64,000 nt of DNA. It comes from an uncultured Prevotella sp. (lineage in GTDB: Bacteria; Bacteroidota; Bacteroidia; Bacteroidales; Bacteroidaceae). The notes beneath the pieces are model-generated. The model worked only from the letters and a program-made list of their open reading frames with translations, did no database searches and was not told the origin of the DNA. Made by a program: the position numbers and the translations under genes. This document shows positions 11,468 to 48,205 of this stretch, one piece after another. How positions within the stretch are numbered: the stretch's first letter is position 1; each line of letters begins with the position of its first letter. The stretch is taken from NCBI GenBank assembly GCA_905233165.1, contig CAJODL010000001.1, positions 563,927-627,926 of the forward strand, written 5' to 3'.

Positions 11468-11606
11468 TCTATTGTTTTCTTAATTCGATTTGCTATGCTA
11501 TGCGTGTCTTTCTCTATATCATTGTGATGAAAGCTTCTGGAGCAAGAATTTTTGATGAATGCATGCTGTTTCTGCGAAAAAAAAAAGACACAAGTATTGA
11601 TTCATA

Positions 11607-12530: not shown

Positions 12531-12535
12531 AATGG

Positions 12536-13444: not shown

Positions 13445-13461
13445 AATGTGGTTGCTCTTAC

Positions 13462-14262: not shown

Positions 14263-14279
14263 TATCTCATCGTTACCTG

Positions 14280-16015: not shown

Positions 16016-16040
16016 TATAAAATGTTTTGCAGTTTAGATA

Positions 16041-17009: not shown

Positions 17010-17036
17010 TAGTTTTGAATTGTTATTTTGTTGTAA

Positions 17037-19309: not shown

Positions 19310-19312
19310 ATA

Positions 19313-20352: not shown

Positions 20353-20398
20353 TTACAATTTTTACTTTATTATTTTATACTATAGTTTATTTATCAAT

Positions 20399-20908: not shown

Positions 20909-20928
20909 AGTGATTTCTGTTTTGTGGT

Positions 20929-23556: not shown

Positions 23557-23582
23557 TAATTATTAACTATTGTATATTGATG

Positions 23583-24988: not shown

Positions 24989-25002
24989 CTTTATTCTTGT
25001 TT

Positions 25003-26409: not shown

Positions 26410-26434
26410 AAGAATTGTAAATTAAGATTTGTTT

Positions 26435-27244
26435 TTAAGATGGCTGCTTTCCGATGTATGCAAGGATACCGCCATCAACATATAATACGTGTCCATTCAC
26501 TGCATCAGAAGCATGAGATGCGAGGAATACTGCTGGTCCACCCAACTCTGATGGGTCGAGCCAACGTCCTGCTGGAGTCTTTGCACAGATGAAGCTGTCA
26601 AAAGGATGACGGCTGCCGTCTGGCTGTCTCTCACGCAGTGGTGCTGTCTGTGGAGTAGCGATGTAACCAGGGCCAATGCCGTTGCACTGGATGTTGTACT
26701 CGCCATACTCTGAGCAGATGTTTCGTGTGAGCATCTTCAGACCACCCTTGGCAGCTGCATAGGCAGATACTGTCTCACGACCCAGTTCTGACATCATAGA
26801 GCAGATATTGATGATTTTTCCTTCCTTACGCTCCATCATTTCAGGCAATACTGCTGCAGAACAGATGTATGGCGCAACAAGGTCAATGTCTATAACCTGC
26901 TGGAACTCTGCACGCTTCATTTCGTGCATAGGAATACGCTTGATGATACCTGCATTGTTTACGAGGATGTCAATCTGACCAACTTCCTTGTGGATGGTAT
27001 CTACAAGTTTCTTTATACCTTCTTCGTCAGTAACGTCACAAACATAACCCTTTACATTTGTTATGCCTGCTTCCTTATAGTTGTCAAGTCCACGCTGTAG
27101 TGCTGCCTCATTGATGTCGTTGAAAACAATCATGTTAGCACCAGCGGCAACAAATGCCTTAGCGATGTTGAAACCAATTCCGTACGATGCGCCTGTAATC
27201 CAAGCGTTTTTCCCTTCGAGGGAGAAATTTGATAAGTTTGCCAT
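26435..27244 (-). CDS. SDR-family oxidoreductase (gluconate 5-dehydrogenase-like)
   Basis: TGASYGIG cofactor motif and YAAAKGG catalytic YxxxK. Confidence 0.8.
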   Translation of the reverse strand: MANLSNFSLEGKNAWITGASYGIGFNIAKAFVAAGANMIVFNDINEAALQRGLDNYKEAGITNVKGYVCDVTDEEGIKKLVDTIHKEVGQIDILVNNAGIIKRIPMHEMKRAEFQQVIDIDLVAPYICSAAVLPEMMERKEGKIINICSMMSELGRETVSAYAAAKGGLKMLTRNICSEYGEYNIQCNGIGPGYIATPQTAPLRERQPDGSRHPFDSFICAKTPAGRWLDPSELGGPAVFLASHASDAVNGHVLYVDGGILAYIGKQPS

Positions 27245-27265
27245 AGTAGTAATAAATTTTGGTAG

Positions 27266-31607: not shown

Positions 31608-34600
31608 TTGCTCGAACGTGAAAATTTTATCAAAAACATGGTTAATATTGATGTTTTTACCCTTTGCCCCAGCAGCCCTGGGATTGTCTCTTCAGAACAG
31701 ATGGCTGCAATAGCGGAGCAGATAAAGACTGAGTTTGTACTGTTGTCACTAAAACCTACTCCCTATGTCCTTGGTCAGAATGCCTTGGCTCGCATGCAGC
31801 GTGTTATGCGTGAGACAGCATCTGTGCTTGTCTATGCCGACAGATACCAGGAGGTAACTATCGATGGCAAGAAAGAAATCCGCAAGTGTCCTGCTATTGA
31901 TTATCAGGAGGGCTCTATTCGCGATGACTTCGACTTCGGACAGTTGGTGCTGGTACGCTCCAGCCTGCTGCGTTCTTTCATGAAACAGCAAAAGCAGCAG
32001 TATGCCTATGCTGCATGGTATGCCTTCCGCCTGTTCCTGCAGCGTAGTGGCGAACTCTTCCACCTGAATGAATTCCTTTATACGGAGCAGGAGCGTGATA
32101 CGCGTGCCAGTGGGGCAAAACAATTTGACTATGTGAATCCTCAGAATCGCAGCCTGCAGATCGAGATGGAACAGGCTGCAACGATACATCTTACTACCAT
32201 AGGCGCTAAGGTGGATACTACGAAACTGCTGGAGGTTGACTTCAACGAGCAGGATTTTGAATATGAGGCATCTGTCATCATCCCTGTCTTCAATCGTGAG
32301 AAGACCATTGCCGATGCAGTGAAGAGTGCCCTCTCTCAGGAGACGAAGTTTCCTTACAATGTCATCGTTGTTGACAACCATTCTACAGACCAGACACCAT
32401 TTATCCTTGGTAGCATAAGCGACAAGCGTCTGATACATATCATCCCAGAGCGTACCGACCTTGGTATTGGTGGCTGTTGGAATGAAGCCATCCACTCCGA
32501 TTACTGCGGACGTTTCGCTGTTCAGCTGGATAGTGATGACCTCTATTCCAGCCCAAAGACCCTCCAGCGTATAGTGGATGCTTTCTATCGTCAGAAGGCT
32601 GCCATGATGATAGGTTCCTATCGCATCTGCGACTTTAATCTCGAAACACTTCCCCCTGGCCTCATAGACCATAAGGAGTGGACAGATGAAAATGGTCCTA
32701 ATAATGCTTTGCGTATCAATGGCCTGGGTGCTCCACGCGCCTTCTTTACTCCGCTGATACGTCATATCGGTTTCCCTAATACCAGCTATGGTGAAGACTA
32801 TGCTATAGGGCTTGCCTTCTCACGTTTCTTCAGGATTGGACGTATCTTTGAAGAGCTCTATCTGTGTCGCCGATGGAGTGGTAACAGCGATGCTGCCCTC
32901 AGCATCGAGAAGGTAAATGCCAATAACCTTTATAAGGATCGCCTGCGCACAATAGAGATAAAGGCCCGTCAGCAGGTTAATGAGGGGCTGCTGAAGGTTA
33001 ATGTGGGCGATGCCCTGCAGCGTTTCCATAATCGTCAGTTAGAGGTGTGGGATGCTACCCGTAAGCGTTATGAAGAGTTGGCAAATGTGAAGGTGAAGGA
33101 GTTGGACGAACTGAAGGCGCAGTTTAACCCTGCACGCATCGTCTCTACTGGCGCAAATATCGAGAAGTCGGCACTGATGAAACGCCGTTGCTTCCTGTGT
33201 AAGGAGAATCGTCCTGAGGAACAGTTCTCAAAGCAGATAAAGATTGATAATGATGCCACATACGAGCTTCTCGTCAATCCGTTCCCTATCTTGCCGGAAC
33301 ACTTCACCATACCTCTGGTGTCGCATGAGCCACAGTCGATATACAAGCATTTTGGCACTATCCGTCAGCTGCTGCGTCGCTATTCTCGCATCATGGTGTT
33401 CTATAATGGTCCTCTCTGTGGGGCCTCTGCTCCTGACCACATGCATTTCCAGGCTGGCACATCAGGCATCGTGCCTATACAGACAGCGTGGAAGCGCCTG
33501 AAGAATACCATGCAGGTGATTCTCGATAATGATGAAGGCGAGAAACTGGCTCTTATTACTGACTATGTATGTCCTGTCTTTGCTATTATTACAAATAATG
33601 CCAAGACAGAAGAGACCTTCTTCCATCGACTCTATCGTGCTATGGACACTGGTAAGGGCGAACCGATGATGAATATCATTGCATGGAAGCAGGACAGTGA
33701 ATATATCACCCTCGTCTTCCCACGCAGCAACCATCGTCCTGCTGCATATCCTAATCCTATGGTGTCACCAGGGGCCCTCGATATGGCGGGACTGATAATC
33801 ACACCTCGTGAGGAGGACTTTAATGCTATGACGACAGAGCAGGCAACAGCCATCCTGCAGGAGGTGAGCGTCACGATGCGTACAGCCGAGGATATCGCTG
33901 AGAGAATAAAAAAGGATGTGCATACACCTACCCAAGCACCTCTGCCTGCTACGTCCATTACCCGTATGGCACATCAGCCAAATGTGAAGGTGGGCATAGT
34001 ACGCGCCATAGAGATACACTTCACCCTTTATGGCGATTATATCGCTAAGGGACAGACCGTAACAGGTCAGCAGACAGCAGAGTATGTTGATGGAGCTATC
34101 CGATGGAATGGCACATTATATAAGGAATTGACCTTCACGCCTGCAGAAAATAATAGTGGTGCTGGTGATGCTACTACTGCTGGTGACCCAGGCACCTTCT
34201 CCTTGGAGAATGTGATGATAGGCATCGGCTTCCATTGGGAGCGTCAGCAGACGCAGACCTTTGTGGGTACCCTGCATTTCGTGGTGGAGAAGGATGGCGT
34301 GACAGCCATCAATGAGCTGCCGGTAGAGAAGTATATTGAGAGTGTTATCACCTCCGAGATGTCTGCTACGTCGTCCCTCGAACTCCTTAAGGCTCATGCC
34401 ATTATCTCGCGTTCGTGGCTGATGGCGACATCACGTCCTGCAACACATGAGTTGTATGATGTGTGTGCCGATGACCATTGTCAGAGGTATCAGGGCATCA
34501 CGTCGTTTGTCAATCCTACTGTCGCACAGGCAGTGCGTGAGACGTGTGGTCAGGTGTTGGCCTATCAGGGGGAGATATGCGATACACGCTATTCTAAGTG

Positions 34601-35243
34601 TTGTGGCGGTATTACGGAGGAATTCCAATACTGCTGGGAGAATATCAAGAAGCCATATCTGCGTTCTATTCATGACCCATACTGTAATACCCAGGATAAG
34701 AAGATACTCTCTGAGGTACTCAGGGATTATGATCAGGAGACGTTAGACTTCCATGACTGGCTCGTCACCTATACACAGGAAGAGTTGGCATCCATACTGC
34801 AGGACAATCTCGGTATCGACTTTGGCCACATCCTCAGTCTTGAGGCTCTGGAGCGTGGTAAGAGTGGTCGTATCTCCTCACTGCGCATTGTGGGTGATAA
34901 GGCAGAGAAGACCATTGGTAAGGAGCTCGCCATCCGCAAGGCCCTGTCACGTTCGTGTCTCTATAGTTCCGCCTTCACTGTTGCGACGACAAATAAGAGT
35001 GACACTCTGTTGGGACAGCTCTCCGCCCTCATTCCACATCCATCATCCATCATCCATAATCCATCATCCAACAGCCATCAGCCAACAACTTGGCCGGCCC
35101 ACTTTATTTTGAATGGCAAAGGCTGGGGTCATGGAGTAGGGTTGTGTCAGATAGGCGCTGCCGTCATGGGCGCCAAGGGAATACCATACGACGATATCCT
35201 GAAGTTCTATTATCAGGGCACCGAAATCGAAAAAGCGTGGTAG
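31608..35243 (+). CDS. tri-domain fusion protein: N-terminal unknown region, GT2 glycosyltransferase, DUF4922/HIT-like nucleotide-sugar phosphorylase-like domain and SpoIID/LytB domain
   Basis: GT2: [10 protein letters not shown]...[10 protein letters not shown] (about 32.27 kb). HIT-like: CFLC..N.PEEQ and [10 protein letters not shown] (33438-33452). SpoIID: [27 protein letters not shown]. Start is TTG 31608 or ATG 31638. Confidence 0.8.
35044..35099. repeat. heptad tract (ccacatc catcatc x2 cataatc catcatc caacagc catcagc caacaac) inside the SpoIID-domain coding region
   Basis: Eight in-register 7-mers. Translated as a non-repetitive [19 protein letters not shown]. Confidence 0.85.
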
Positions 35244-35778: not shown

Positions 35779-36390
35779 TTATCCCTCTTCCCAACCGTCG
35801 CCGGTGTTACCACCGCCGCCGTTGTTGCCGCCAGTGCTTGGTTCAGGGTCGGAGGGCTCATTCTGAGTATTCTGATTACTCTGATTACTCTGATTATTCT
35901 GAGTATTCTGAGAGCCCTCTGAGCCCTCCTCTGGGTCTTCCACCTCGCCAGCGTCAGAAGTGACACGCTTGATGATGTTGCCGTCCTTGTCGTAACAAGT
36001 GATGTTGATAGAAGTCTGCTTGAGTTCCTGCTTCAGGTCCACAGAAGGAGTGAACACGATACGACGAGAAGTGATGAGCTTTGATGCCACATCGTTTACA
36101 TCAGCGACGCTTTCAGAACGGAGTCCGAAACGCATGGTACCGAGTCCAGGGATTGCCACAGAGTGACCTTCAGTAGCCCATGCCTTGATTACCTCACCTG
36201 CTGCATCCCAACAAGCAGACATTACACCCTTAGAGACACCGCTACGCAGAGCAGCCTCTGAAATAACCTTGCTTTCGGAAAGTTTGCTGTAGAGCTCAGG
36301 CTTCAGCACATAGCGATAGCCAAGTGACTTCCCTTCCTTGTCGGAAAAATGACTGAGATCAGTCTCGATTGCTTTAACTTTAATAGACAT
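35779..36390 (-). CDS. Bacteroidota HU-related (histone-like) DNA-binding protein with a low-complexity C-terminal tail
   Basis: Core ...VISEAALRSGVSKGVM...VAIPGLGTMRFGL... resembles HU_rel proteins. The tail is QNTQNNQSNQSNQNTQNE...GGNNGGGGN. Confidence 0.7.
   Translation of the reverse strand: MSIKVKAIETDLSHFSDKEGKSLGYRYVLKPELYSKLSESKVISEAALRSGVSKGVMSACWDAAGEVIKAWATEGHSVAIPGLGTMRFGLRSESVADVNDVASKLITSRRIVFTPSVDLKQELKQTSINITCYDKDGNIIKRVTSDAGEVEDPEEGSEGSQNTQNNQSNQSNQNTQNEPSDPEPSTGGNNGGGGNTGDGWEEG
35860..35913. repeat. 9-bp-period tract (attctgagt/attctgatt/actctgatt) encoding the HU-like tail
   Basis: Six nonamers, in frame (Q-N-T/S repeats on the minus strand). Confidence 0.85.
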
Positions 36391-36565: not shown

Positions 36566-36640
36566 CGACATATTTTTCTCTCACGAAAAATTAGCGTGGA
36601 TTTTAACATTTAGTCTTTTTGTGGTGGCTTCTGAGGTACG

Positions 36641-36676
36641 GTCGTAAAAGTCGTAAAAGTCGTTTTTGTCGTTTTA
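36641..36676 (+). repeat. array of four 9-bp iteron-like units (GTCGTAAAA x2, GTCGTTTTT, GTCGTTTTA)
   Basis: Read directly. Units 2-4 recur exactly at 46736-46762, and the array recurs in inverted form at 36846-36881. Confidence 0.9.
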
Positions 36677-36845: not shown

Positions 36846-36881
36846 AAAAACGACAAAAACGACAAAAACGACCAAAACGAC
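36846..36881 (-). repeat. array of four 9-bp units in inverted orientation (AAAAACGAC x3, CAAAACGAC)
   Basis: Reverse complement is GTCGTTTTG, then GTCGTTTTT x3. The 17-bp core gtcgtttttgtcgtttt is shared with the left array. Confidence 0.9.
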
Positions 36882-36893
36882 TGTTGATAAAAA

Positions 36894-36959: not shown

Positions 36960-37278
36960 CAACCGCATCACACGATTACGATTGTGTGTTGAAGAGTGTG
37001 TAAGCGTACATTACTCGCAAATCTTAAGGGTTAAAATTAAAGACATTAGCAGTTATTAGGAGAACATAGAAACCTGAGAAATTTCTAAAATCCAAGCGAC
37101 CGATAGTTGTGAATGCCTGCGCTTATAGCGTGGACGTCACTTATCAGTTTGGTGGGCAATCTCAGGGCCTCTATGTTCGATAAGGAGCGGACACGCTTTT
37201 ATCGTGTATAGAGGTCTTGACGTTTTCAAGTCCCAAAGAATTCCGATAAGTGCTTTTGCCATTAGTTATAAGCACATT

Positions 37279-38331
37279 ATGTCCTCAAAGACCAAAGAGC
37301 CGTTGAATGTTGACGGCAAACTTCCCTATGTTGACATTCGGGAAGATGATCTGCGTAATATTTCGGAGGATGTATTAGAAGCACTTCTTCGAGACCATAC
37401 TACGCAGAAGAATATATTTTGGGCTACTCATGATTATGAGGAGTTAGGTGAAGGATATGAATACCATTCACCAATATTACCAAACCTAATCACTAAAGAA
37501 AATGGCTTGGTAATAAGACCTCGTGTGTTGAAAACAAAGGAAGAGCAAACAGCTCGTGCAAAGGGTAAAGCAGAAGTCTTTACTCCTTCGTGGGTTTGTA
37601 ATGCCCAGAACAATCTGGTTGATGAAGCATGGTTTGGAAGAAAGAATGTTTTCAATACAGAAAATTCTGCTAATCATACTTGGAGAGTAAACCATAACAA
37701 AATAGAGTTTCCAGAAGGTAAGACTTGGAGAGACTATGTGAAGGCTACTCGCATGGAGATAACTTGCGGTGAAGCTCCTTATCTTGTCAGTCGTTATGAT
37801 ACAACTACAGGCGAACCAATACCACTTGAAAGACGCATTGGTATTTTAGATAGAAAACTTCGTGTTGTAAGCGAAAATACTACCACTACCACACAATGGC
37901 TACAATGGGCCAGAGAGGCTTATAAAAGCACTTATGGATATGAGTGGCAAGGAGATAATCTCTTGCTTGCCAGAGAGGCTCTTTTGTGGAGTTTCTATGA
38001 GTATTATTATGCAAAGTTTGGCAAGAAACCACAAACCAAGTCAATGAAGTTTATTGCCTATATTGTTTCGTGGAATATATGGCAGATGGATGGCTTAAGG
38101 TGTGTGGTTCCTGATTCGTGCAAACATGGAGTAATAGAGAAGATACAAACCCTCTTTGGTGAAGAAGAAACCAAAGTAACTTGTCCTGGTTGTAATGAAG
38201 ATGATATTCATAAACACAATGGTATTTACTGCCTCATAAGAGATTGGGGAGTAAAGGACTTATGGACGAGAGAGAATAACAGAAAGATACGTTTTGTTGA
38301 CCTAATAACAGAAGAAGATGGCGACATTTGA
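37279..38331 (+). CDS. 350-aa partner protein of the helicase-methyltransferase fusion; MTase-like motif remnants plus a C-terminal Cys/His cluster; function unknown
   Basis: AEVFTPSWVCNAQNNL (motif X-like), EITCGEAPYL (degenerate motif I/IV-like, 37768-37782), C..H...CPGC..H.H...C. ATG 37279 preferred over GTG 37204. The 3' end overlaps the next gene by 14 nt. Confidence 0.65.
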   Translation: MSSKTKEPLNVDGKLPYVDIREDDLRNISEDVLEALLRDHTTQKNIFWATHDYEELGEGYEYHSPILPNLITKENGLVIRPRVLKTKEEQTARAKGKAEVFTPSWVCNAQNNLVDEAWFGRKNVFNTENSANHTWRVNHNKIEFPEGKTWRDYVKATRMEITCGEAPYLVSRYDTTTGEPIPLERRIGILDRKLRVVSENTTTTTQWLQWAREAYKSTYGYEWQGDNLLLAREALLWSFYEYYYAKFGKKPQTKSMKFIAYIVSWNIWQMDGLRCVVPDSCKHGVIEKIQTLFGEEETKVTCPGCNEDDIHKHNGIYCLIRDWGVKDLWTRENNRKIRFVDLITEEDGDI

Positions 38332-41300
38332 ATCATCATTAAAATCAAAACTGATTTATGTTTTTGCAATCCCAGATGAACGTCACAAGGATTGCCTAAA
38401 AATTGGAGAAACCACCATTGATGAAGATGATGGCAGTAATCTCTTTAATAATTCAGAAGTTCTACAGGAAGCAGCCCATCGTCGTATACGCCAATATACC
38501 AAGACGGCAGGCATAGCGTACCAGTTGCTATATACTGAGATAAGTATCTTCATGCATAGTGGCATGATAATGTCTTTTAATGACAAACAGGTGCATCATG
38601 TCTTGGAACGCTCTGGTATCAAGAAGAAGGAGTTTGACAACGTCAAAGGAGCCGATGAGTGGTATTGTTGCGACTTGGAAACTGTCAAGAAAGCAATACA
38701 AGCCATAAAACATGGCGAGACAAGCCTAAAGCCTTCAGATGTAACACAAGGACTTACCCCAATAATCTTCCGTCCAGAACAAAGAGAAGCTATAGACAAA
38801 ACACGCAAGCGCTTCAAAAAAGGCAACAATATGCTTTGGAATGCCAAGATGCGTTTTGGCAAGACTCTTTCTGCATTGCAACTTGTTAAGGAGGAGGAGT
38901 TTACAAGGACTCTTATATTGACCCATCGTCCTGTAGTCGATGAAGGTTGGTTTGAAGACTTCAATAAAATATTCTATGATCGTGATGACTATAAATATGG
39001 TTCACGGAATAAAGGCGAAGACTTCAACAAGTTAGAAAAACATTGTCCCAAGCAAAAGTACGTTTATTTTGCTTCTATGCAAGACCTGAGAGGCTCCGAA
39101 CAAGTAGGCGGCAAGTTTGATAAGAACGATAAAATCTTCTCCACTCCTTGGGATTTTATAATAATAGATGAAGCTCACGAAGGTACAAAGACAGAATTAG
39201 GGCAAAACGTAATAACAGAACTTATAAAGCCAACCACAAAAGTATTGCAGCTGTCAGGTACTCCATTTAACCTATTTGATGATTACACTGAGAACGAAAT
39301 CTTCACTTGGGATTATGTAATGGAGCAGAAAGCAAAACAGACTTGGGCAGTAGATAATCCATATGAGCCTAATCCATATGTTTCTTTGCCAGCAATAAAT
39401 ATATATACATACGACCTTGGAAACCTCATGTCTGAATATGCAGAGGATGAAAAGGCATTTAACTTCAAAGAATTTTTCAGGACAAGAGATGATGGTTCGT
39501 TTATCCATGATAATGATATAGACCGTTTTCTTGTGTTACTATGCAAGGAAGACAAAGACAGCCTCTATCCATATAGCAACGAAACATTCCGCAGGACATT
39601 CCGCCACACACTTTGGCTTGTGCCAGGAGTGAAATCAGCAAGGGCTTTGAGTGCAAAGCTTCAGTCACATCCTGTTTTTGGTAACTTCAAGATTGTCAAT
39701 GTTGCAGGAAATGGTGATGAAGATGAAGAGAATGACGAGGCATTACAGATGGTTAACAAGGCTATAGGTAGTGACCCAAGTCAGACCTATACCATTACAT
39801 TAAGTTGTGGAAGACTTACAACTGGTGTCAGCATCAAGCCTTGGACAGCAGTATTTATGATGGCAGGTTCTTTCAGTACTTCTGCAGCACAATATATGCA
39901 AACAATCTTCCGTGTCCAGACTCCTTTTGAATGTAATGGAAGGATGAAGGAACAATGTTATGCTTTCGACTTTGCTCCAGATAGGACGTTGAGAGTACTT
40001 GCAGAAGCAGCAAAGGTTTCAACCAAAGCAGGCAAACAATCGGATGAAGACCGAAGAATACTTGGCGATTTTCTGAACTTCTGTCCTATAATCTCCATCG
40101 ATGGCTCTCAGATGAAGCCATACGATGTGAACAAGATGATGAGCCAACTGAAAAAGGCTCAAATAGAACGTGTAGTACAAGGAGGTTTTGAAGATGTTGC
40201 CCTATATAATGATGAACTGCTGAAGCTAACAGATGTAGATTTAAAAGAATTTGCCAATCTGAAGAAGATAATCGGCTCTACGAAGGCTATGGCAAAGACT
40301 GCCGACATAGATGTAAATAATCAAGGCTTTACGAATGAGGAATACGAAGAGAAGGAACGCCTAGAGAAGAAACCAAAGAAGCAGCTTACACCTGAGGAAT
40401 TGGAACGTCTGAGAGAACTCAAGGAGAAGAATAATGAGCGGAAGAACGCTATCAGTATCCTTCGTGGAATTTCTATTCGAATGCCATTGCTTATCTATGG
40501 AGCAGAATTAAAGAATGAGGAAGACGAAATAACAATAGATAATTTTGCAACACTTGTTGATGACCAGTCATGGGAAGAATTTATGCCCAAAGGTGTTGAT
40601 AAGAAATACTTTGAAAAGTTCAAAAAATACTATGACCCAGACATATTCCGAGAGTCAGGAAAGCGAATTCGCGAAATGGCTCGTACAGCTGACAAGTTTA
40701 CTATTGAAGAGCGCATAGAACGTATTTCAGCCATCTTCAACACTTTCCGTAATCCAGACAAAGAAACCGTTTTAACTCCTTGGAGAGTAGTTAATATGCA
40801 TATGAGTGATTGCCTTGGAGGCTGGTGTTTCTATGATAAGAATTTTGAACATACTTTGGATGTTCCAAGATATGTAAATCAAGGCAAGGTGACGAAAGAC
40901 GTATTCCGTCCAGACAGCCATATTTTGGAAATAAATTCAAAGAGTGGTCTTTATCCGCTTTATGTTGCTTATAACATTTATCGCAGCAGAGTCGAGGCAG
41001 CAAAGGAGAAATACGGAGATGTTAGTCACGGCTTTGCTATGCAGCTATGGGATGCAACAATAGAGGAGAATGTCCTTGTGGTATGTAAAACCCCTATGGC
41101 GAAAAGTATAACCAAGCGCACCCTTGCAGGATTCCGTAATACAAGGGTGAATGCACAATATTATCCTAACCTTATAGAAAACATTTCAGAGAAGCCTGAA
41201 CTAGTAATCAATACCCTTCGTGATGGCAAACGCTTCTGGAAAATAAATCAAGATGAAACAATGAAAATAGACGCAATAGTAGGAAATCCGCCGTATCAGG

Positions 41301-42232
41301 TAAATGTGGGAATAAAAAAAGATAACTATGGAGTTCTAATTTTTGATAAATTTGTTCAGCTCTCAAAAAAAATGACTCCAAACTATATTTCAATGATTAT
41401 GCCATCTCGCTGGTTTACAGGAGGTAGAGGATTGGATACCTTCCGAGATGAAATGCTGAATGATAGAAGAATTTCTTTTATCAAAGATTTTGTTGATTCT
41501 AAAGAATGTTTCCCTGGAGTCGATATAGCTGGTGGTATTTGCTACTTTTTATGGGATAAGAAACACAATAGTGATTGTACTTTTGTTAGCCGAATAAGAG
41601 GAAAAGATACTAAAACTGTGAGAAAACTCAATGAATATGAATTATTCCCTCGTTATAATGAGGCTCTTTCTATTATAAGAAAAGTCACGGAGAAAAAAGA
41701 AAAAAACTTTTCTACTACAGTGGGACCTCAAACAGCATTTGGTTTTATTACGACATTTAGAAGCACTACAGAATACTTTGATGATGCTATTGCTTTATAT
41801 ACAAGTGGAGGCATAAATTATGTTAAAAGGGAGGAGGTCAAAAAAGCACAAGAGTGGATTGATTTATATAAAGTTATATTTTCAACAGCAACTGCTGAAC
41901 ATGCAGGTACACCAGATAAGAGTGGAAAATATAGAGTACTTTCATCCTTACGAATAATAAAACCTAAGGAAATATGTTCTCAAAGTTATTTTGTTGGGAA
42001 CGTTTTTAAAACACATGACGAGGCTGTTAATTGTATGGAATACTTGAAGACAAAATTTGTTAGATTCCTTTTACAACAATTAATAACAGGACAACATTTA
42101 AGTGCTGATAAATTTAGATTCGTCCCACTTCAGGATTTTACCCATTCTTGGACAGACGAAATGTTATACAAGAAATACAAATTTAATGAAGAAGAAATAT
42201 TGTTCATTGAATCCATGATAAAACCAATGTAA
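38318..42232 (+). CDS. 1304-aa fusion: T5orf172 (GIY-YIG superfamily) domain, SF2/ResIII DEAH helicase, coiled-coil linker and gamma-class N6-adenine DNA methyltransferase (Eco57I/TaqI-like) with a C-terminal TRD-like region
   Basis: LIYVFAI..LKIGETT..RRIRQY..DEWY; FGKT (GKT at 38858-38866); IIIDEAHEG (DEAH at 39167-39178); LSGTPF; TPWRVVNMH, ILEINSKSGLY, DAIVGNPPYQ (NPPY at 41285-41296). Confidence 0.85.
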   Translation: MATFESSLKSKLIYVFAIPDERHKDCLKIGETTIDEDDGSNLFNNSEVLQEAAHRRIRQYTKTAGIAYQLLYTEISIFMHSGMIMSFNDKQVHHVLERSGIKKKEFDNVKGADEWYCCDLETVKKAIQAIKHGETSLKPSDVTQGLTPIIFRPEQREAIDKTRKRFKKGNNMLWNAKMRFGKTLSALQLVKEEEFTRTLILTHRPVVDEGWFEDFNKIFYDRDDYKYGSRNKGEDFNKLEKHCPKQKYVYFASMQDLRGSEQVGGKFDKNDKIFSTPWDFIIIDEAHEGTKTELGQNVITELIKPTTKVLQLSGTPFNLFDDYTENEIFTWDYVMEQKAKQTWAVDNPYEPNPYVSLPAINIYTYDLGNLMSEYAEDEKAFNFKEFFRTRDDGSFIHDNDIDRFLVLLCKEDKDSLYPYSNETFRRTFRHTLWLVPGVKSARALSAKLQSHPVFGNFKIVNVAGNGDEDEENDEALQMVNKAIGSDPSQTYTITLSCGRLTTGVSIKPWTAVFMMAGSFSTSAAQYMQTIFRVQTPFECNGRMKEQCYAFDFAPDRTLRVLAEAAKVSTKAGKQSDEDRRILGDFLNFCPIISIDGSQMKPYDVNKMMSQLKKAQIERVVQGGFEDVALYNDELLKLTDVDLKEFANLKKIIGSTKAMAKTADIDVNNQGFTNEEYEEKERLEKKPKKQLTPEELERLRELKEKNNERKNAISILRGISIRMPLLIYGAELKNEEDEITIDNFATLVDDQSWEEFMPKGVDKKYFEKFKKYYDPDIFRESGKRIREMARTADKFTIEERIERISAIFNTFRNPDKETVLTPWRVVNMHMSDCLGGWCFYDKNFEHTLDVPRYVNQGKVTKDVFRPDSHILEINSKSGLYPLYVAYNIYRSRVEAAKEKYGDVSHGFAMQLWDATIEENVLVVCKTPMAKSITKRTLAGFRNTRVNAQYYPNLIENISEKPELVINTLRDGKRFWKINQDETMKIDAIVGNPPYQVNVGIKKDNYGVLIFDKFVQLSKKMTPNYISMIMPSRWFTGGRGLDTFRDEMLNDRRISFIKDFVDSKECFPGVDIAGGICYFLWDKKHNSDCTFVSRIRGKDTKTVRKLNEYELFPRYNEALSIIRKVTEKKEKNFSTTVGPQTAFGFITTFRSTTEYFDDAIALYTSGGINYVKREEVKKAQEWIDLYKVIFSTATAEHAGTPDKSGKYRVLSSLRIIKPKEICSQSYFVGNVFKTHDEAVNCMEYLKTKFVRFLLQQLITGQHLSADKFRFVPLQDFTHSWTDEMLYKKYKFNEEEILFIESMIKPM

Positions 42233-42372: not shown

Positions 42373-42885
42373 ATGACTCAGAAAGAAGCATTGGAACAGG
42401 CTCTTAAAGATTTAGGTGGACGCGCTCCGCTAAAAGATATCTATCCTATAGCATTAAAGTATTGTACACATAAAGAGGGCAGTAAAATAAAGGAAGCATT
42501 AAGATCATGTATACATAGGGATCGAAGTAAATTCATCCCTTCACCAGGCAAACCTGTTGGCTGGTGGGAGTTAACATCATTTCAGGAAGATGTTGCCCAA
42601 ATGAAGACTCACATCCAAGAGTTAGAAGAGGAAAATGAAAGATTGAGAAAAGTTCCTACGGAAGATGATTTCGTAGAGAGATTTATAAAGCAAGTGAAGA
42701 CTTTTCTAAAACGTGATAAGAAGTCAGTTGACGAGATAAGGAAGATATTAGTGGCATTAAATCGTGCAGATGCTGCAAAAGATCTTGATAACTGGATAGA
42801 AGAGAATGATACTCCTTTGCTGTCTATCGGTTCAGCAAGTGACATCATAGAGAGAGGTGGAAAGAAAATAGTTAATAACAGATAG
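42373..42885 (+). CDS. winged-helix (Mrr_N/HARE-HTH-like) plus coiled-coil protein
   Basis: N-terminal QKEALEQALKDLGGRAPLKDIYPIAL... resembles restriction-system N-terminal wHTH domains. Central region is heptad-rich (QELEEENERLRK). Confidence 0.55.
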   Translation: MTQKEALEQALKDLGGRAPLKDIYPIALKYCTHKEGSKIKEALRSCIHRDRSKFIPSPGKPVGWWELTSFQEDVAQMKTHIQELEEENERLRKVPTEDDFVERFIKQVKTFLKRDKKSVDEIRKILVALNRADAAKDLDNWIEENDTPLLSIGSASDIIERGGKKIVNNR

Positions 42886-43890: not shown

Positions 43891-44235
43891 ATGATTAAAA
43901 AGATTTTTATAAAAAACGAAAAGCAAGTTATGAACGTCCTGAAGAAAGGACAAGTGGTGGAAGGTCGTTTGAGAATAGAAAGGGCAGATGATGGCAGAAT
44001 ATGCATATGCTTCAAGGCATGGGAACGTACTGCTCCGAAATGCGGACATCGTGACAGAGGCAAGATAATAATGAGGACTGAACATGGATGGGTGAAGGAA
44101 TCGAAGGAAAGGATTAAAACCTATGAGAGCGTGCCGAAAGACCTTGGCAAGCAGAAGGTCGTGGCAATACTGGATAGGGATACGTATGAGGCGTGTGACT
44201 TCCTTATGTCTTACTCGGAAACTAATAACTTTTAA
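43891..44235 (+). CDS. hypothetical basic protein (114 aa)
   Basis: ORF immediately upstream of the primase-helicase gene (8-nt gap). Confidence 0.45.
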   Translation: MIKKIFIKNEKQVMNVLKKGQVVEGRLRIERADDGRICICFKAWERTAPKCGHRDRGKIIMRTEHGWVKESKERIKTYESVPKDLGKQKVVAILDRDTYEACDFLMSYSETNNF

Positions 44236-44243
44236 TACCGAAT

Positions 44244-46742
44244 ATGGAAAGAGTATATAGTTATATAGACGGTGTGACGGATACGAAACCCAAGCCGTTG
44301 ACAAGGGAGAAATTCCATGAACTCTGCAAAGCACCACGCACAAGGAAACTTGTGCGTGACTTCCAACAGGGTAACGGGGAGGCAAAGAAAAAACTGCCTG
44401 CTGCCATGTTTCTCGGATTTCAAACACAGGGTGACCGCATACAGGAACATATGGAGCCTACGCAACTTTACCTAATTGATATCGACCATATCAGTAACAA
44501 GAACGAGGACATGACCCCTGAAATGGTATGGGAGAAGATAAGACAGGAGATGGAGGTGGCGCAATATGACTTCATGGTAAGACTTGTTCACAAGACTCCA
44601 AGTGGTGATGGGCTGAGAATTGTGCTACATGCTACGGAGAACTTCGAGACTCTGGAAGAACATGCCGAATGGTTGAGAAAGGAACTCGACCTGGACAGAT
44701 ATGGAAAATTTGACTGCCTGAAAAATCTCGACAGGGTGTCGTTCATAATTCCTGAAGAATACATCCTCCTTGAAAGTCCATGTCTGTGGGATGAGACAGA
44801 AGAAGGTGGACCGATAAAGAAGAAAACGAAGGATGAAGGACGAAAGACGAAGGACGATAACCATAACGTTAACGAAAACAACTCTCAACTGTCAACTTTC
44901 AACTCTAAACTGAACGATGACGGGGAACCTATCTTGTGGGAGGGGTATGACATTCAGAAGATTATCGATGACCGATACAGAAGGGGGGTGCCTGGGGCAG
45001 GAAACATATCGAGGCATGATCAGAGCTTGAAACTGGCACGTGACCTTCTTATTATGTTCGACCGCGATAAGAGCCTTGTTCTCAGAATATTGCTTAGGCA
45101 GAGCTGGATAAAGGACATAATTAAGGAACGCAACGAACCTGTTGAAAAAACGATTGAAGCGGCTCTGACTTATGCTAACGGCAAGGATGGTGGAAAGTAT
45201 GCCCTGACATACAGGTATCTGACGCCTGCAACGCAAAACTCTATACTGCATGTAACGGGAAATACATGGAAAGAATGGATAGCAGAACTTGATGCGAAGT
45301 TTGAAGAAACTCTGGAAGAAAGAAACGATAACGAAAACGAAAACCAGGACGAAAACTATGACGAAGACGATGACGAAGAAGATGCTGTTGCGACTATGCC
45401 GCCTGCACCACCTGTGATAAGGGAACTGATATCTATTGCTCCAAAGGATTTCGTGATACCTGCCATCAATGCTCTGATGCCAATACTGGGTACGTTGACA
45501 TCATACGTAAGGGCTGAGGACAAGCAGGATGCGAAAACGATATCTACAACATTCTTCTCCATAATCTATGCTCCGCCATCATCGGGTAAAAGCTTCGTTG
45601 ATAGGTATATCAACTACCTCATGCGTGACCTCTACAGACGAGACGAACTGAATGATGCAAGGGATGAAGTTTATGCAAGGGCTGACCAACAGAAAGGTCA
45701 GAACGTGCATGGAGAGCCACTGCCACTGACTACGATACGCATAATGGAGGCAAAGAGCTCTGAAACAGAGTTTCTGCAGAAACAGAGAAACAACAAGGGG
45801 CATCATATGTTTACGTACTGTTCGGAGATAGACCAGTGGCGCAAAGGTGTAAAGGCTGCAGGTGGTAATAAGGACGACATGATACGCATAGCATGGGACA
45901 ATGGACGATATGGACAGAAATACAAATCAACCATGTCCTTTAAGGGTAAGGTGTTCCTGTACTGGAATGTGCTCATAGCAGGTACCGACGATCAGTTACG
46001 GGCGTATTTTAAGAATGTGACGAACGGACTGGTGACGAGATGCTGCTTTCAGGAGATAAAGAACCAGGAATTTCAGGAAGTCCCCCCAGAATGGAAGACC
46101 TTGAACAAGAAGGAACGGAAGGTTATAGACAATTTTATAGAAAAGTGTGACCGGATGACCTATACAGAGCCTCTTACCTACGACGTGGAGCAATGCTATA
46201 GCGTGGCCGACAAAGACTTTGACGCAGAGGTGCCATGGCGGATGGACTTCAAACCCCTGATAACTGTTAATATCGATTGGATAATGCCCACAATAGCACG
46301 GTTCAACAGAGAGCATTGCAGAAAGGCGATGATGGACAATGATAGAGCTCATGACACTTTTCGCAGACGAGTAGGAACAAGAGCTAAGAGACTGGCATTG
46401 TTATGTACCCAGTTGTATGAAAAATCCATGACACAGGCTGACAAAAAAGCTTGCGCAAAGTGGATAGCATGGTGGATGGAACAGGATATAAAAGGTATAA
46501 TGAGACCATTCGCAAACAAATACAGAAAAGCTATAGAAGAAGATACTCCTGACAATACTCCACGAAAGACTCTGTTTGAACGACTGCCTGAAGAATTTTC
46601 GAAAGAAGACGTAAGAAGAATGGCTGATATCTTGGGATATAAGACGAGTGTTAGAGAAATTACTTTCAGGTGGAAGAAAATAAATATTATAGAGAAAATG
46701 ACAAATGATACTTGGAGGAAAATTACAGAGAAAAAGTCGTAA
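44244..46742 (+). CDS. primase-helicase: VirE_N/BT4734-like N-terminal primase domain plus DUF3987-type P-loop helicase domain
   Basis: N-terminal KKLPAAMFLG.....R....PTQLYLIDIDH pattern. Low-complexity linker. Walker A PPSSGKSF (GKS at 45585-45593). Confidence 0.75.
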   Translation: MERVYSYIDGVTDTKPKPLTREKFHELCKAPRTRKLVRDFQQGNGEAKKKLPAAMFLGFQTQGDRIQEHMEPTQLYLIDIDHISNKNEDMTPEMVWEKIRQEMEVAQYDFMVRLVHKTPSGDGLRIVLHATENFETLEEHAEWLRKELDLDRYGKFDCLKNLDRVSFIIPEEYILLESPCLWDETEEGGPIKKKTKDEGRKTKDDNHNVNENNSQLSTFNSKLNDDGEPILWEGYDIQKIIDDRYRRGVPGAGNISRHDQSLKLARDLLIMFDRDKSLVLRILLRQSWIKDIIKERNEPVEKTIEAALTYANGKDGGKYALTYRYLTPATQNSILHVTGNTWKEWIAELDAKFEETLEERNDNENENQDENYDEDDDEEDAVATMPPAPPVIRELISIAPKDFVIPAINALMPILGTLTSYVRAEDKQDAKTISTTFFSIIYAPPSSGKSFVDRYINYLMRDLYRRDELNDARDEVYARADQQKGQNVHGEPLPLTTIRIMEAKSSETEFLQKQRNNKGHHMFTYCSEIDQWRKGVKAAGGNKDDMIRIAWDNGRYGQKYKSTMSFKGKVFLYWNVLIAGTDDQLRAYFKNVTNGLVTRCCFQEIKNQEFQEVPPEWKTLNKKERKVIDNFIEKCDRMTYTEPLTYDVEQCYSVADKDFDAEVPWRMDFKPLITVNIDWIMPTIARFNREHCRKAMMDNDRAHDTFRRRVGTRAKRLALLCTQLYEKSMTQADKKACAKWIAWWMEQDIKGIMRPFANKYRKAIEEDTPDNTPRKTLFERLPEEFSKEDVRRMADILGYKTSVREITFRWKKINIIEKMTNDTWRKITEKKS
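44826..44916. repeat. 13-heptad tract inside the primase-helicase CDS (acgaagg-type words switching to ctNtcaa-type words)
   Basis: acgaagg atgaagg acgaaag acgaagg acgataa ccataac gttaacg aaaacaa ctctcaa ctgtcaa ctttcaa ctctaaa ctgaacg. Confidence 0.85.
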
Positions 46743-46762
46743 AAGTCGTTTTTGTCGTTTTA
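46736..46762 (+). repeat. third copy of the 9-mer array (GTCGTAAAA, GTCGTTTTT, GTCGTTTTA)
   Basis: 27 bp identical to 36650-36676. Overlaps the primase-helicase stop codon (46740-46742). Confidence 0.9.
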
Positions 46763-46796
46763 TCAAAAATTGTTTTACATTAAATAATAAGTAAAG

Positions 46797-47288
46797 ATGG
46801 GAATACAAAAGAGCAGATATGCAAGTTATAAAGAAACGCCAGCCTATCGTAACAGGAATCCGTTGAACATACGATGGTCGGCAAAGAATAAGTGGCAGGG
46901 CCAGACAGGATGTGACACAAGAGGTTTTGCCAAGTTTGAGAGCCTGAGCTACGGCTATCGTGCAGCAGTGAAGATACTGCATCGGTACAAGACAAACGGA
47001 TGGAAGACCATAGCGGAGGTGATACGCCATTGGGCACCATCTACAGAGAATTCCACCGAGAGTTATATAAAAACCGTGTGTAACCTGATGGCACAACGGC
47101 AGAGTGAGTTGGGAACAATAACCCCACAGACACAGGTGGACTTGAGAAACAGAAATCTTGTGATAAACCTTCTCTTAATGATGACCAAGGTGGAGACGGG
47201 ATGGAGTACAACGGCAGTATTGTCAATGAGGGAGTATATCGGGATGGGTTACGACCTCGCCGCAACAAGTCCGGAGTTTTTTAAATAA
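46797..47288 (+). CDS. phage-associated conserved hypothetical protein (163 aa)
   Basis: NPLNIRWS..NKWQG....GFAKFESLSYGYRAAVKIL..Y...GWKTIAEVIRHWAPSTENSTESYIKTV. The pattern is recalled from phage proteins, but function is not established. Confidence 0.5.
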   Translation: MGIQKSRYASYKETPAYRNRNPLNIRWSAKNKWQGQTGCDTRGFAKFESLSYGYRAAVKILHRYKTNGWKTIAEVIRHWAPSTENSTESYIKTVCNLMAQRQSELGTITPQTQVDLRNRNLVINLLLMMTKVETGWSTTAVLSMREYIGMGYDLAATSPEFFK

Positions 47289-47296
47289 CAAAACAG

Positions 47297-47330
47297 AGGC
47301 TGCATTTGGTTGCAGCCTTTGATTTATTTA
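47297..47330 (+). terminator. rho-independent terminator
   Basis: Stem aggctgca (47297-47304) pairs with tgcagcct (47311-47318), then a T-rich tail. The stem core is the same as in the IR hairpins. Confidence 0.55.
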
Positions 47331-47364
47331 ATTGTAAAAGATAAAAGTTAATAGTTTTTAGTTT

Positions 47365-47484
47365 ATGAACGATAAGAAAAATATTTGGCAGGTGTTGGCG
47401 AAGGTGATAGTAGCCGCACTGACAGCAGCGCTCACAGCTGTTACAACAACGTCATGTATGGGATTTGGACCTATGTTAAGTTGA
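47365..47484 (+). CDS. 39-aa small membrane/lipoprotein-like peptide ('smalltalk'-like, from recall); below the ORF-track cutoff
   Basis: ATG 47365 encodes MNDKKNIWQVLAKVIVAALTAALTAVTTTSCMGFGPMLS, then a stop. Confidence 0.5.
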   Translation: MNDKKNIWQVLAKVIVAALTAALTAVTTTSCMGFGPMLS

Positions 47485-47530
47485 GAGTTTAGAGTTTAGA
47501 GTTGAGAGTCAGTTTAAAAGTTTATAGTTT
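47479..47530. repeat. heptad tract (gagttta/gagttga/gtttata) filling the spacer before the DUF5675 gene
   Basis: About 7 in-register 7-mers. Confidence 0.8.
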
Positions 47531-47992
47531 ATGGAACTAATTTTAAAAAGAATAGCAAAACGTAAAGGTTATACAATAGGAATACTCTACCTCTCCCCCT
47601 TGGGGGAGTCGGAGAGGGGTTATCTTTGCGACACTCTTGAGCCGCCGTGTATTGAGATGAAGGTGGACAGGACAGTTGAGGAGGTGCTGAATGATAAGAG
47701 TCTCCTGAAGTCTATCAAGCCGTGTGCGATACCGGAAGGGGAATACAGGGTCAGTATGACATACAGCCCAAGGTATAAAACGCAGCTGCCGTTGATAACG
47801 GGTGACAGCCGCTTTAACAGCCTCTGGCAAGGCATCCGCATCCACGCCGGCAACACCGCAAAGGATACACAAGGTTGCATCCTGGTAGGAGAAAACCAAA
47901 TCGTAGGAATGGTGATAAATTCGCGTATCACCTTGAAGACCCTCCTGACTTTCCTTAAAGGGAGGGATGTAAAGTTGAGAGTGAAAAGTTAA
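47531..47992 (+). CDS. DUF5675-family protein
   Basis: GYLCDTLEP...IPEGEY.V.....SPRY...LPLI......GIRIHAGNTAKDTQGCILVGEN matches the recalled DUF5675 pattern. Confidence 0.65.
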   Translation: MELILKRIAKRKGYTIGILYLSPLGESERGYLCDTLEPPCIEMKVDRTVEEVLNDKSLLKSIKPCAIPEGEYRVSMTYSPRYKTQLPLITGDSRFNSLWQGIRIHAGNTAKDTQGCILVGENQIVGMVINSRITLKTLLTFLKGRDVKLRVKS

Positions 47993-47995
47993 TTG

Positions 47996-48033
47996 CGTAG
48001 GCTGCACATTTGCAGCCTACGTTTATTTTTGGG
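47996..48033 (+). terminator. rho-independent terminator after the DUF5675 gene (inside the right IR)
   Basis: 11-bp stem, 4-nt loop, then tttattttt. Confidence 0.7.
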
Positions 48034-48071
48034 GCTTTAAAATTGGGGCTTTAAAATTGGGGCAAGCGGTA
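47996..48071. repeat. right copy of the 76-bp perfect inverted repeat
   Basis: Exact reverse complement of 35247-35322. Confidence 0.95.
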
Positions 48072-48134
48072 GCTTTGCGAAAATAGCTTATATATAAAAT
48101 AAAAAAGGTCAGCATATTTTGCTGGCCTTTTATG

Positions 48135-48205
48135 TTGTCCTAGGCGGATTCGAACCACCACAAACAGAACCAAAACCTGTTGTGCTACCATTACACCATA
48201 GGACA
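48135..48205 (-). tRNA. tRNA-Gln (anticodon UUG)
   Basis: Folded by hand: acceptor TGTCCTA/TAGGACA, D arm GTGT/GCAC, anticodon stem ACAGG/TCTGT with loop TTTTGGT, T arm GGTGG-TTCGAAT-CCGCC. 71 nt; CCA is not encoded. Confidence 0.9.

Follow-up and report, generated by a model that had tools for sequence, protein, structure and literature searches.

What kind of enzyme is specified by two overlapping genes, ORF1 and ORF2, in a 64,000-nucleotide (nt) stretch of DNA from an uncultured Prevotella sp. (contig CAJODL010000001.1; the whole stretch is hereafter called the window)? Open reading frame (ORF) 1, of 350 amino acids (aa), resembles the front half of an adenine methyltransferase, and ORF2, of 1304 aa, joins a nuclease-like domain, a helicase-like motor and a methylase in a single chain. 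An earlier note, made from the sequence of the window, had taken the pair for a motor-driven restriction or defense enzyme. The structural elements of such an enzyme are present; restriction or defense activity is what we infer from them. The answer which we consider probable is a restriction-modification enzyme of two subunits, dependent on ATP and similar to Type ISP, of which ORF1 would be a non-catalytic half-methylase subunit.

Domains of ORF1 and ORF2

The sizes of both ORFs, their 14-nt overlap and all of the motifs quoted in the earlier note were found where it had placed them. Five modules can be distinguished: H1, the ORF1-type half; N, the T5orf172 domain; Hel, the helicase; H2, the 'KSGLY' half within ORF2; and C, which comprises NPPY and the target recognition domain (TRD). 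Their positions in the window are:

37279..38331, + strand: ORF1 (module H1), predicted half-methyltransferase, 350 aa; matched over its full length by PADLOC 'MTase_II' PDLC03390 at 1e-126, with support from the AlphaFold2 (AF2) model, Foldseek and fused homologs
37570..37617, + strand: ORF1 motif X, AEVFTPSWVCNAQNNL, residues 98–113; E99 and T102 invariant across the diverse family
37756..37785, + strand: ORF1 motif I variant EITCGEAPYL, residues 160–169, strand beta1 of the model; aligns with LEPACGDGNFL of a phage homolog
38068..38094, + strand: ORF1 motif III-like SWNIWQMDG; aligns with IVCGNAL of the phage half-methylase
38119..38232, + strand: ORF1 Cys/His cluster C281, C302-x2-C305, H313 and C318 on two beta-hairpins (AF2 model); invariant among close homologs
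38284..38307, + strand: ORF1 terminal strand KIRFVDLI, equal to the strand before NPPY in complete enzymes
38318..38331, + strand: 14-nt overlap forming the operon junction (ORF1 stop at 38329–38331, ORF2 ATG at 38318)
38318..42232, + strand: ORF2, fusion N-Hel-H2-C, 1304 aa (translation, Pfam, PADLOC, homolog searches, residue conservation)
38339..38722, + strand: module N, T5orf172/GIY-YIG-type, putative nuclease (conserved residues, Pfam matches in homologs, hhalign)
38753..40237, + strand: module Hel, SF2 (superfamily 2) helicase-like ATPase (Pfam ResIII, phrog_16 at 1.5e-27, invariant motifs, Foldseek)
40238..40477, + strand: K/E-rich helical linker, 32% K+E (composition, AF2 model)
40748..41269, + strand: module H2, predicted N-terminal half of ORF2's own methylase; the best conserved block of ORF2 (0.86)
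41270..42229, + strand: module C, predicted NPPY catalytic half plus TRD, exchangeable specificity cassette (PADLOC, Foldseek, hhalign 1e-64 to 1e-81 against all forms)
41285..41296, + strand: NPPY (motif IV), breakpoint of recombination and fission; DNA homology to a related locus ends at ~41298, and inverted repeats of related loci fall on the same stretch
41558..42037, + strand: hypervariable core of the TRD, residues 1081–1240, mosaic with respect to the backbone

ORF1 was taken to begin at the ATG at 37279, where its homologs begin, rather than at the GTG at 37204 which opens the longest frame. A motif search of its sequence revealed no NPPY, DPPY or NPPF. Measured against the gamma-class N6-adenine methyltransferases it has neither motif IV nor the C-terminal Rossmann half, and the chain stops after strand beta4. 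The earlier note had remarked on the missing NPPY and on the Cys/His cluster, correctly in both cases. In an alignment of the diverse family E160, C163, G164, E165 and P167 of motif I are invariant, as are W265, N266, Q269, M270 and D271 of the motif III-like stretch, and the 55-member family alignment holds 27 invariant residues. The AF2 model has a compact fold (predicted local distance difference test [pLDDT] 90.9; predicted template modeling score [pTM] 0.90), in which strand 158–161 is followed by the CGEAP loop of motif I, motif II is represented by strand 218–222 (EWQGD) and motif III by strand 267–269 (WQMD), after which come two hairpins with the Cys/His residues and a final strand at 334–338. 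With this model the best Foldseek match had an E of 0.53, which is below significance, and the top matches were all gamma-class methylases (BrxX, PglX, LlaGI, BsaXI, DrdV, MmeI and LlaBIII).

The point of truncation is seen in longer relatives. An exhaustive HMMER search over representatives yielded 1807 relatives of ORF1, and about one-fifth of the best 150 are 590–720 aa in length. In these the ORF1-like domain runs directly into FDFVIGNPPYQV, followed by a C-terminal part which aligns with ORF2 979–1301, and Pfam Eco57I matches them only from about model position 50 onward; homologs of 650–669 aa likewise pass from the ORF1-like domain to FDFVIGNPPYQ and the TRD without a break. A 260-aa phage homolog possesses canonical LEPACGDGNFL, YGVDI and IVCGNAL sequences, which align with EITCGEAPYL, YGYEW and IWQMDGL of ORF1. 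Its match to Pfam MmeI_Mtase, over positions 17–120 of 259, is weak and below the cut-off [4.4e-5]. ORF1 is, then, the front half of a methylase, with motifs X and I–III and strand beta4 and without the catalytic loop and back half; it is the half which would bind S-adenosylmethionine (SAM).

Motifs X and I had also been described as degenerate copies of those of ORF2. The motifs are there; their derivation from ORF2 was dropped, since the ORF1 family profile aligned by hhalign with ORF2 790–988 at an E of only 0.3, below significance. ORF1 represents a lineage of its own among methylase N-terminal halves. Its Cys/His cluster is predicted to be a Zn-type, lineage-specific insert, and the 282-aa Enterococcus homolog, with 268 aligned columns against 313–324 for other members, may have lost it. 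Because plasmid homologs carry the NCBI label 'restriction endonuclease', a PD-(D/E)xK nuclease within ORF1 residues 1–95 was considered as well and rejected: in the AF2 model this region is mostly coil and short helices with no alpha-beta-beta-beta-alpha-beta core, the family alignment contains no invariant acidic/lysine triad, and no nuclease feature of ORF1 was found in the model, the alignment or the family libraries.

For ORF2, residue conservation was scored across 46 homologs, including those of a branch only ~25% identical to it. The N-terminal domain carries LIYVFAI (residues 12–18), LKIGETT (27–33), RRIRQY (55–60) and DEWY (113–116), among which K28, G30 and E114 never vary and Y14 and R56 hardly do. 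Its assignment to the T5orf172/GIY-YIG type, already made in the earlier note, is established through homologs. An Alloprevotella protein, 29% identical over ORF2 23–727, possesses Pfam T5orf172 [2.3e-10] and MUG113 [2.4e-11] motifs; a gut-phage homolog matches T5orf172 at 2.3e-9 and Firmicutes partner proteins at ~1e-3. The profile of ORF2 1–145 aligned by hhalign with homolog N-termini at probabilities of 77–99%, those for the 2.3e-10 and 2.3e-9 proteins being 97–98%. No PD-(D/E)xK family matched the N-terminus of ORF2. That the divergent partners at loci L025, L049, L061, L066 and L068 might carry another nuclease was rejected, for they show the same T5orf172-like order of motifs (HIYAF, LKVGDT, R..VRL.EW, D.SVH, S.EFF), a likeness at motif level only (hhalign E 0.03–0.5). 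T5orf172 domains can be true nucleases, as in the case of ICP1 Gp88/Odn (PMC8263062).

The motor follows. Pfam ResIII covers residues 151–317 [1.8e-15], and in PHROGs residues 143–786 fall in a DNA helicase family. FGKT lies at 180–183, IIIDEAHEG at 281–289 and LSGTPF at 312–317, and the invariant or nearly invariant residues are G181-K182 of Walker A, D284-E285-x-H287, S313-G314-T315, and Q528, R532 and Q534 of motif VI. The ResIII match and the invariant Walker A and DEAH residues uphold the SF2 helicase that had been read in this region.

In the methylase, motif X (TPWRVVNMH, 820–828) and motif I (ILEINSKSGLY, 869–879) belong to H2, where T820, P821, K875 and G877 are invariant or nearly so, as are G989-N990-P991-P992-Y993 within DAIVGNPPYQ (985–994). 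Pfam Eco57I matches residues 917–1065 [1.4e-29]. PADLOC, whose restriction-modification models derive from REBASE, aligns residues 978–1303 with the C-terminus of the 1359-position 'REase_MTase_IIG' model [2.4e-50] and with a 348-aa 'MTase_II' model, PDLC03375. The gamma-class adenine methyltransferase of the earlier note is complete, with NPPY and a C-terminal TRD. The AF2 model of residues 105–1304 has a pLDDT of 66.5 and is good over the methylase and TRD. Foldseek, a check which the earlier note had advised for each segment, matched the methylase part to CamA [2e-11] and also to BrxX/PglX, BpuSI, MmeI and DrdV, the model to M.TaqI (target-normalized TM-score ~0.54) and to LlaBIII (E 3e-10 over 1460 columns), and the motor to RadD, SauUSI and SNF2. 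Searches of Protein Data Bank (PDB) sequences with ORF1, ORF2 and the 46-member ORF2 profile gave no useful match, the best being RadD at 0.007 over the DEAH region only.

Module order and exchange of the specificity module

The five modules occur in three architectures. Form A, [H1][N-Hel-H2-C], is that of the window, of most Bacteroidota and of conjugative Enterococcus faecium plasmids. Form B, [H1-C][N-Hel-H2], is found on metagenome and metagenome-assembled genome (MAG) contigs, with spore-germination and serine-recombinase genes among the neighbors, and also in Bifidobacterium longum. Form C, [H1][H2-C]...[N-Hel], comes from one Alloprevotella MAG and one temperate gut phage, in the latter between AAA_13 and EVE-McrB-like genes.

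The Form B helicase proteins (1113–1124 aa) are 32% identical to ORF2 12–624. The ~160 residues at their C-terminus match complete Eco57I methylases over the N-terminal half of the latter [BLAST 1e-18 to 1e-21; hhalign 99.2%], including the motifs IFTPKKVV, DLYMKSGLY and YGLAPTE, and they end at 'KVDEVFE', just before NPPY, where the complete methylases read KFDVIIGNPPYQ. Forms B and C were compared directly by BLAST and hhalign, the hhalign profile of ORF2 H2 having missed even bona fide H2 halves of Form C. Every form contains two front halves and one catalytic half, the break always falls just before NPPY, and the front half left as an orphan is H2 in Form B and H1 in the other two forms. 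That each form keeps two front halves for a single catalytic half speaks for joint action of H1, H2 and C within one complex. Two proteins, each a single metagenomic sequence, join the modules otherwise: P0309 (1125 aa) is an H1-N-Hel fusion, and P0299 (933 aa) reads H1-H2-C, with a complete Eco57I methylase. They may be Rosetta-stone evidence of physical association, or else artefacts of assembly or frameshift.

Two of these loci have peculiarities of their own. The Form B locus of B. longum plasmid NZ_CP065398.1 (L091:6914–13729) is interrupted within the H1-C methylase gene by an IS256 element, owing to which the record lists two products, a 'restriction endonuclease subunit M' and a truncated protein with an Eco57I domain. 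The methylase and T5orf172-helicase genes of the unfused Alloprevotella version are separated by a 218-aa ORF (L026:3170–3826), whose product ends in a coiled coil and matches the 23S rRNA intervening-sequence protein family below threshold.

The last ~300 residues of ORF2, which the earlier note thought could form a TRD, proved hypervariable and exchangeable. Over 57 full-length homologs the mean identity to ORF2 is 64–86% for residues 1–960, 54% for 961–1000, 41–46% for 1001–1080 and 24–27% for the core at 1081–1240, with 45–57% for the last 64 residues. TRDs of 25% identity can sit on backbones of 97–99% identity. Proteins P0017 and P0019 are 94–99% identical to ORF2 over 1–1000, yet 25% over 1081–1240; P0012, P0014 and P0021 are mosaics of the reverse kind, with the backbone 70–81% and the TRD 82–84% identical. 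At the DNA level the window and locus L092 are 90% identical from 37033 to ~41298, that is, to the NPPY codons, where the similarity stops, and the ORF1 partners on the two sides of such a change of TRD stay 89–95% identical. A TRD which is hypervariable and mosaic, with a DNA breakpoint at NPPY, indicates diversification by cassette exchange, a route which Type I, Type IIG and Type ISP systems also take (PMC3553950, PMC2853133). Since ORF1 does not co-vary with the TRD, it is not the specificity factor.

One or two inverted, promoterless extra C modules lie just beyond the ORF2 homolog in four of ~82 loci. These silent cassettes and the inverted repeats, which sit exactly on the NPPY-coding stretch, are:

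L028:6926–9866: repeats of 44 nt, 84% complementary
L033:13826–17985 (Prevotella corporis DSM 18810): repeats of 28 nt, 96% complementary, together with 160 nt, 73% complementary
L034:3002–7012 (Capnocytophaga bilenii): repeats of 37 nt, 97% complementary
L056:13936–15948: repeats of 38 nt, 100% complementary

In three of the four a tyrosine recombinase of 267–278 aa adjoins the silent cassette [Pfam Phage_integrase, 1e-24 to 1e-26]. By its sequence the layout looks like an hsdS-shufflon-like specificity switch set upon a helicase-methylase fusion. A second C module and a second NPPY repeat were looked for in the window and neither was found; it possesses one C module only.

Distribution and setting of the gene pair

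In the protein collection, clustered at 90% identity, ORF1 and ORF2 each have 8000 or more clusters of homologs, with sources including Prevotella, Bacteroidaceae, Bacteroides fragilis, B. uniformis and Parabacteroides; Alistipes is also among the carriers. NCBI names the homologs 'Eco57I restriction-modification methylase domain-containing protein' or 'restriction endonuclease subunit M'. When one genome per species was scanned with two ORF1 peptides, at least 595 matches were confirmed, at 57–78% identity, and the taxa among the matches listed are Bacteroidales, Flavobacteriales, Cytophagales, Sphingobacteriales and Saprospiraceae. Locus-level counts rest on 80 loci kept from these matches. 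In about 65 of the 80 a full-length ORF2 homolog (46–77% identity) lies directly downstream on the same strand, the junction ranging, with few exceptions, from a 14-nt overlap to a ~20-nt gap, or from a 4-nt overlap if the window is set aside; no further gene family is common to more than 10 of the 80. The cluster numbers and the maintenance of the pair indicate that both genes are real and not chance ORFs. ORF1 is thus, much as had been supposed, a methylase-like partner without catalytic motif IV, and its linkage to the large gene persists from phylum to phylum and shows again in fused proteins.

Recurrent neighbors are tyrosine integrases, relaxase, excisionase-like helix-turn-helix proteins, Fic/RhuM, YhcG-PDDEXK, AAA_21/AAA_15, Schlafen-AlbA2 and DUF3408, and on conjugative Enterococcus plasmids the pair adjoins DUF262. 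Among 50,697 phage genomes ten records matched ORF2 at E<1e-5, none of them P1-like. The pair is an autonomous cassette of chromosomal islands, plasmids and a gut phage, lying among integrases and defense genes. The phage in question, PV036449.1 from human faeces, carries a defense-island-like block (L089:1833–13398) composed of an AAA_13 ATPase, the 260-aa half-methylase, a 506-aa Eco57I methylase, a 974-aa T5orf172-helicase and a 952-aa EVE+AAA_5 (McrB-like) protein.

In the window the GC content is 0.37–0.40 over 36–44 kb, the flanks being ~0.43–0.49. The cassette is bounded by a HU-HIG gene (35779–36390) and by a set at 43891–48205 comprising an 832-aa BT4734-like_N/DUF3987 protein, a 163-aa amidase/endolysin-like ORF, DUF6486, DUF5675 and, at its end, tRNA-Gln. 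This HU-HIG to tRNA-Gln arrangement is recurrent in Bacteroidales, and four close relatives (L012, L014, L021 and L024) have the same insertion site. A 170-aa ORF at 42373–42885 was considered as a third gene of the system and rejected; it was found in five of the 80 loci, all of them close relatives with the common insertion site.

The 888-nt intergenic region 5' of ORF1 contains an imperfect inverted repeat with arms at 36638–36675 and 36847–36884 (38 nt, 76% complementary, 171 nt between them), built from 9-nt periodic AAAACGACA units, which could be iterons or an invertible-promoter-like element. Elsewhere in the window a 1211-aa ORF (31608–35243) joins glycosyltransferase family 2, DUF4922, an ATP adenylyltransferase-like stretch and SpoIID, and its product is an unusual multi-domain envelope protein. 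An unbroken run of ~19 co-directional ORFs on the minus strand (9986–28771), upstream of greA, suggests by its layout a polysaccharide or similar biosynthesis locus.

Proposed function and comparison with known systems

If the pair is a restriction-modification enzyme, the C-terminal TRD of ORF2 would recognize a short DNA target and the gamma-class methyltransferase formed by H2 and C would protect host DNA by N6-methyladenine (m6A). On unmodified DNA the SF2 motor, presumably translocating at the expense of ATP, would bring the N-terminal T5orf172/GIY-YIG-type nuclease to the DNA, resulting in nicking or cleavage. ORF1 would associate physically with the H2+C core as its stoichiometric partner, perhaps with SAM bound, and the resulting pseudo-dimer would couple the state of cofactor and target to motor and nuclease. 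Specificity would diversify by replacement of NPPY plus TRD, through homologous exchange and, in some relatives, recombinase-driven inversion. A variant of this scheme, which we think unlikely, makes the methyltransferase active site one of exchangeable parts, with H1 and H2 alternating on, or sandwiching, the single catalytic module, so that the methylase would be assembled in trans and switchable between methylation and motor-driven cleavage; the choice could be made by sensing SAM or the modification state of the target.

Several observations weigh against a restriction enzyme of this kind. Within the GIY-YIG clan of Pfam, ORF2 itself matches MUG113 only, at an E of 0.071, below significance, and the tyrosine of YIG is replaced by lysine; for both reasons the nuclease competence of module N is not assured. 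The ORF2 model is mediocre overall and the second RecA lobe falls below a pLDDT of 50. The constancy of ORF1 while the TRD changes would place its role outside specificity. In Bacillus subtilis, moreover, the analogous set DnmA-YeeB-YeeC neither restricted DNA nor protected against phage (PMC9973331).

We allow a small chance that the pair is a non-cleaving methylation or epigenetic system, BREX-like or a phasevarion, in which motor and T5orf172 domain would serve surveillance or DNA binding and the output would be replication interference or gene regulation. The methylase has BrxX/PglX and the orphan regulator CamA among its best structural matches, invertible specificity cassettes are typical of phasevarions, DnmA behaves as an orphan regulator in B. 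subtilis, and T5orf172 has also been described as a predicted DNA-binding domain (PMC9973331). On such a view, however, the invariance of the GIY-YIG-type Arg and Glu and of the ATPase motifs over divergent lineages would be hard to explain without catalysis. The cassette, furthermore, resides in mobile elements and defense islands and moves horizontally, and neither a BREX component nearby nor a match to the PglX model was found.

The main alternative of the earlier note, an anti-restriction or self-protection module of mobile elements which, in the manner of DarB, methylates incoming element DNA to escape host restriction, has fared badly. It would fit the copies on conjugative plasmids and a temperate phage, as well as the union of methylase and helicase, which P1 DarB also shows. 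None of the ten phage records is P1-like, though, the domain order is the reverse, and many copies, that of the window included, lie in chromosomal islands without transfer genes. A narrow, hypervariable specificity with silent spare cassettes suits restriction-modification and not a broad protective methylation, and the conserved nuclease-type domain would be left without a role; we rate this explanation as quite improbable. As for ORF1 being a functionless relic of gene fission or rearrangement beside a self-sufficient, single-chain Type ISP-like ORF2, we find it barely credible. ORF2 does hold every Type ISP module, including a methylase N-terminal half of its own, but ORF1 is 57–78% identical across Bacteroidota orders, with its 27 invariant residues in the 55-member alignment, is intact beside its partner in nearly all 80 loci and has a compact predicted fold (pTM 0.90), and an orphan half has been kept in all three architectures.

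A two-subunit restriction-modification enzyme is accordingly the reading under which the pair is compared below. The two genes form a widespread, biochemically uncharacterized cassette of gut Bacteroidota, among the commoner unexplored modules of restriction-modification type in that phylum; gut phages and plasmids of Enterococcus and Lactobacillales carry related forms. If active, it would hinder phage therapy, conjugation and genetic manipulation of its carriers and be a source of unexplained m6A motifs. New in the pair and its relatives are a subunit which is half a methylase, a catalytic cassette which is permuted between subunits, and exchange and inversion centered on NPPY. A helicase motor driving a GIY-YIG-type nuclease would be new to the enzymology of restriction-modification, as would an obligatory half-methylase subunit and a specificity cassette which includes part of the catalytic domain and is swapped or inverted at the NPPY codons. 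NPPY would be a natural junction for engineering new specificities.

The earlier note did not recognize the pair as any named system. It is indeed uncharacterized, yet the family carries the PADLOC/REBASE labels 'MTase_II' and 'REase_MTase_IIG', and a cluster of MmeI-like methylase, helicase and GIY-YIG protein was proposed as a restriction-modification system in 2009 (PMC2731913). Neither a GIY-YIG Type ISP enzyme, nor a Bacteroides example, nor a 'split methyltransferase' restriction-modification system was found in searches of the literature.

The likeness to Type ISP (LlaGI, LlaBIII) lies in the single chain with the order nuclease, SF2 motor, gamma-class N6-adenine methylase and C-terminal TRD, in near-identical backbones with differing TRDs, as reported for LlaGI and LlaBIII (PMC3553950), and in the residence of both on plasmids or islands. 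The two differ in that the nuclease of Type ISP is a Mrr-family PD-(D/E)xK enzyme, while the N-terminus of ORF2 is T5orf172/GIY-YIG-type, and in that Type ISP is a single polypeptide, whereas the genomic evidence gives ORF2 a conserved half-methylase partner. Type ISP enzymes combine ATP-driven translocation with cleavage upon collision and methylate one strand. Because of nuclease class and partner the system of the window falls outside Type ISP, and no sequence similarity of ORF1 or ORF2 to LlaGI or LlaBIII was detectable in the PDB sequence searches.

The PADLOC model PDLC03626 'REase_MTase_IIG' (1359 positions) represents a branch sister to that of ORF2, alike in architecture and likewise paired with an ORF1 homolog; L049 and L061 match it at 1234–1267 bits. 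This branch is only 24–32% identical to ORF2, from about residue 151 onward. In so far as REBASE-derived models list it as a putative Type IIG enzyme, the family is already catalogued. The Type IIG label is a database prediction, and true Type IIG enzymes have no ATPase motor and cleave independently of NTP hydrolysis; with an SF2 ATPase, its Walker A and DEAH invariant, between nuclease and methylase, the system of the window is not Type IIG.

Type III systems (Mod and Res) share the two-gene operon with a methylase-like gene first and an SF2 ATPase plus nuclease in the second gene. Their complex is Mod2Res, and more than one methylase-type module per complex is likely on both sides. Mod is, however, a complete beta-class methylase carrying the TRD, whereas ORF1 is catalytically incomplete; Res has a C-terminal PD-ExK nuclease and no methylase, while ORF2 carries the TRD, an N-terminal GIY-YIG-type domain and a methylase of gamma-class order (X-I-IV, then TRD). 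P1 DarB combines methylase and helicase with the methylase N-terminal and the helicase C-terminal, the reverse of ORF2. To BREX the resemblance is in the structure of the methylase core only, no PglX model having matched in PADLOC and no BREX component lying nearby. The inverted silent specificity cassettes of the four related loci recall hsdS shufflons and epigenetic invertons (cf. PMC7672463, PMC7394358); in them, however, what inverts is not an hsdS gene but the catalytic C-half together with the TRD of a helicase-methylase fusion, the crossover falling on the NPPY codons. The window has no such unit.

The nearest described analog, judged by its described composition, would be DnmA(YeeA)-YeeB-YeeC, in which the same three activities are found together in one operon on horizontally acquired islands. 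T5orf172 is its candidate nuclease, DnmA behaving as an orphan regulator (PMC9973331), and a YeeABC-type cluster has been reported, as cited in that paper, to protect Vibrio crassostreae against some phages. The system of the window differs from it in the fusion of N-terminal T5orf172 and helicase within ORF2, in a methylase which matches Pfam Eco57I and not the MmeI_* models, and in the extra half-methylase module.

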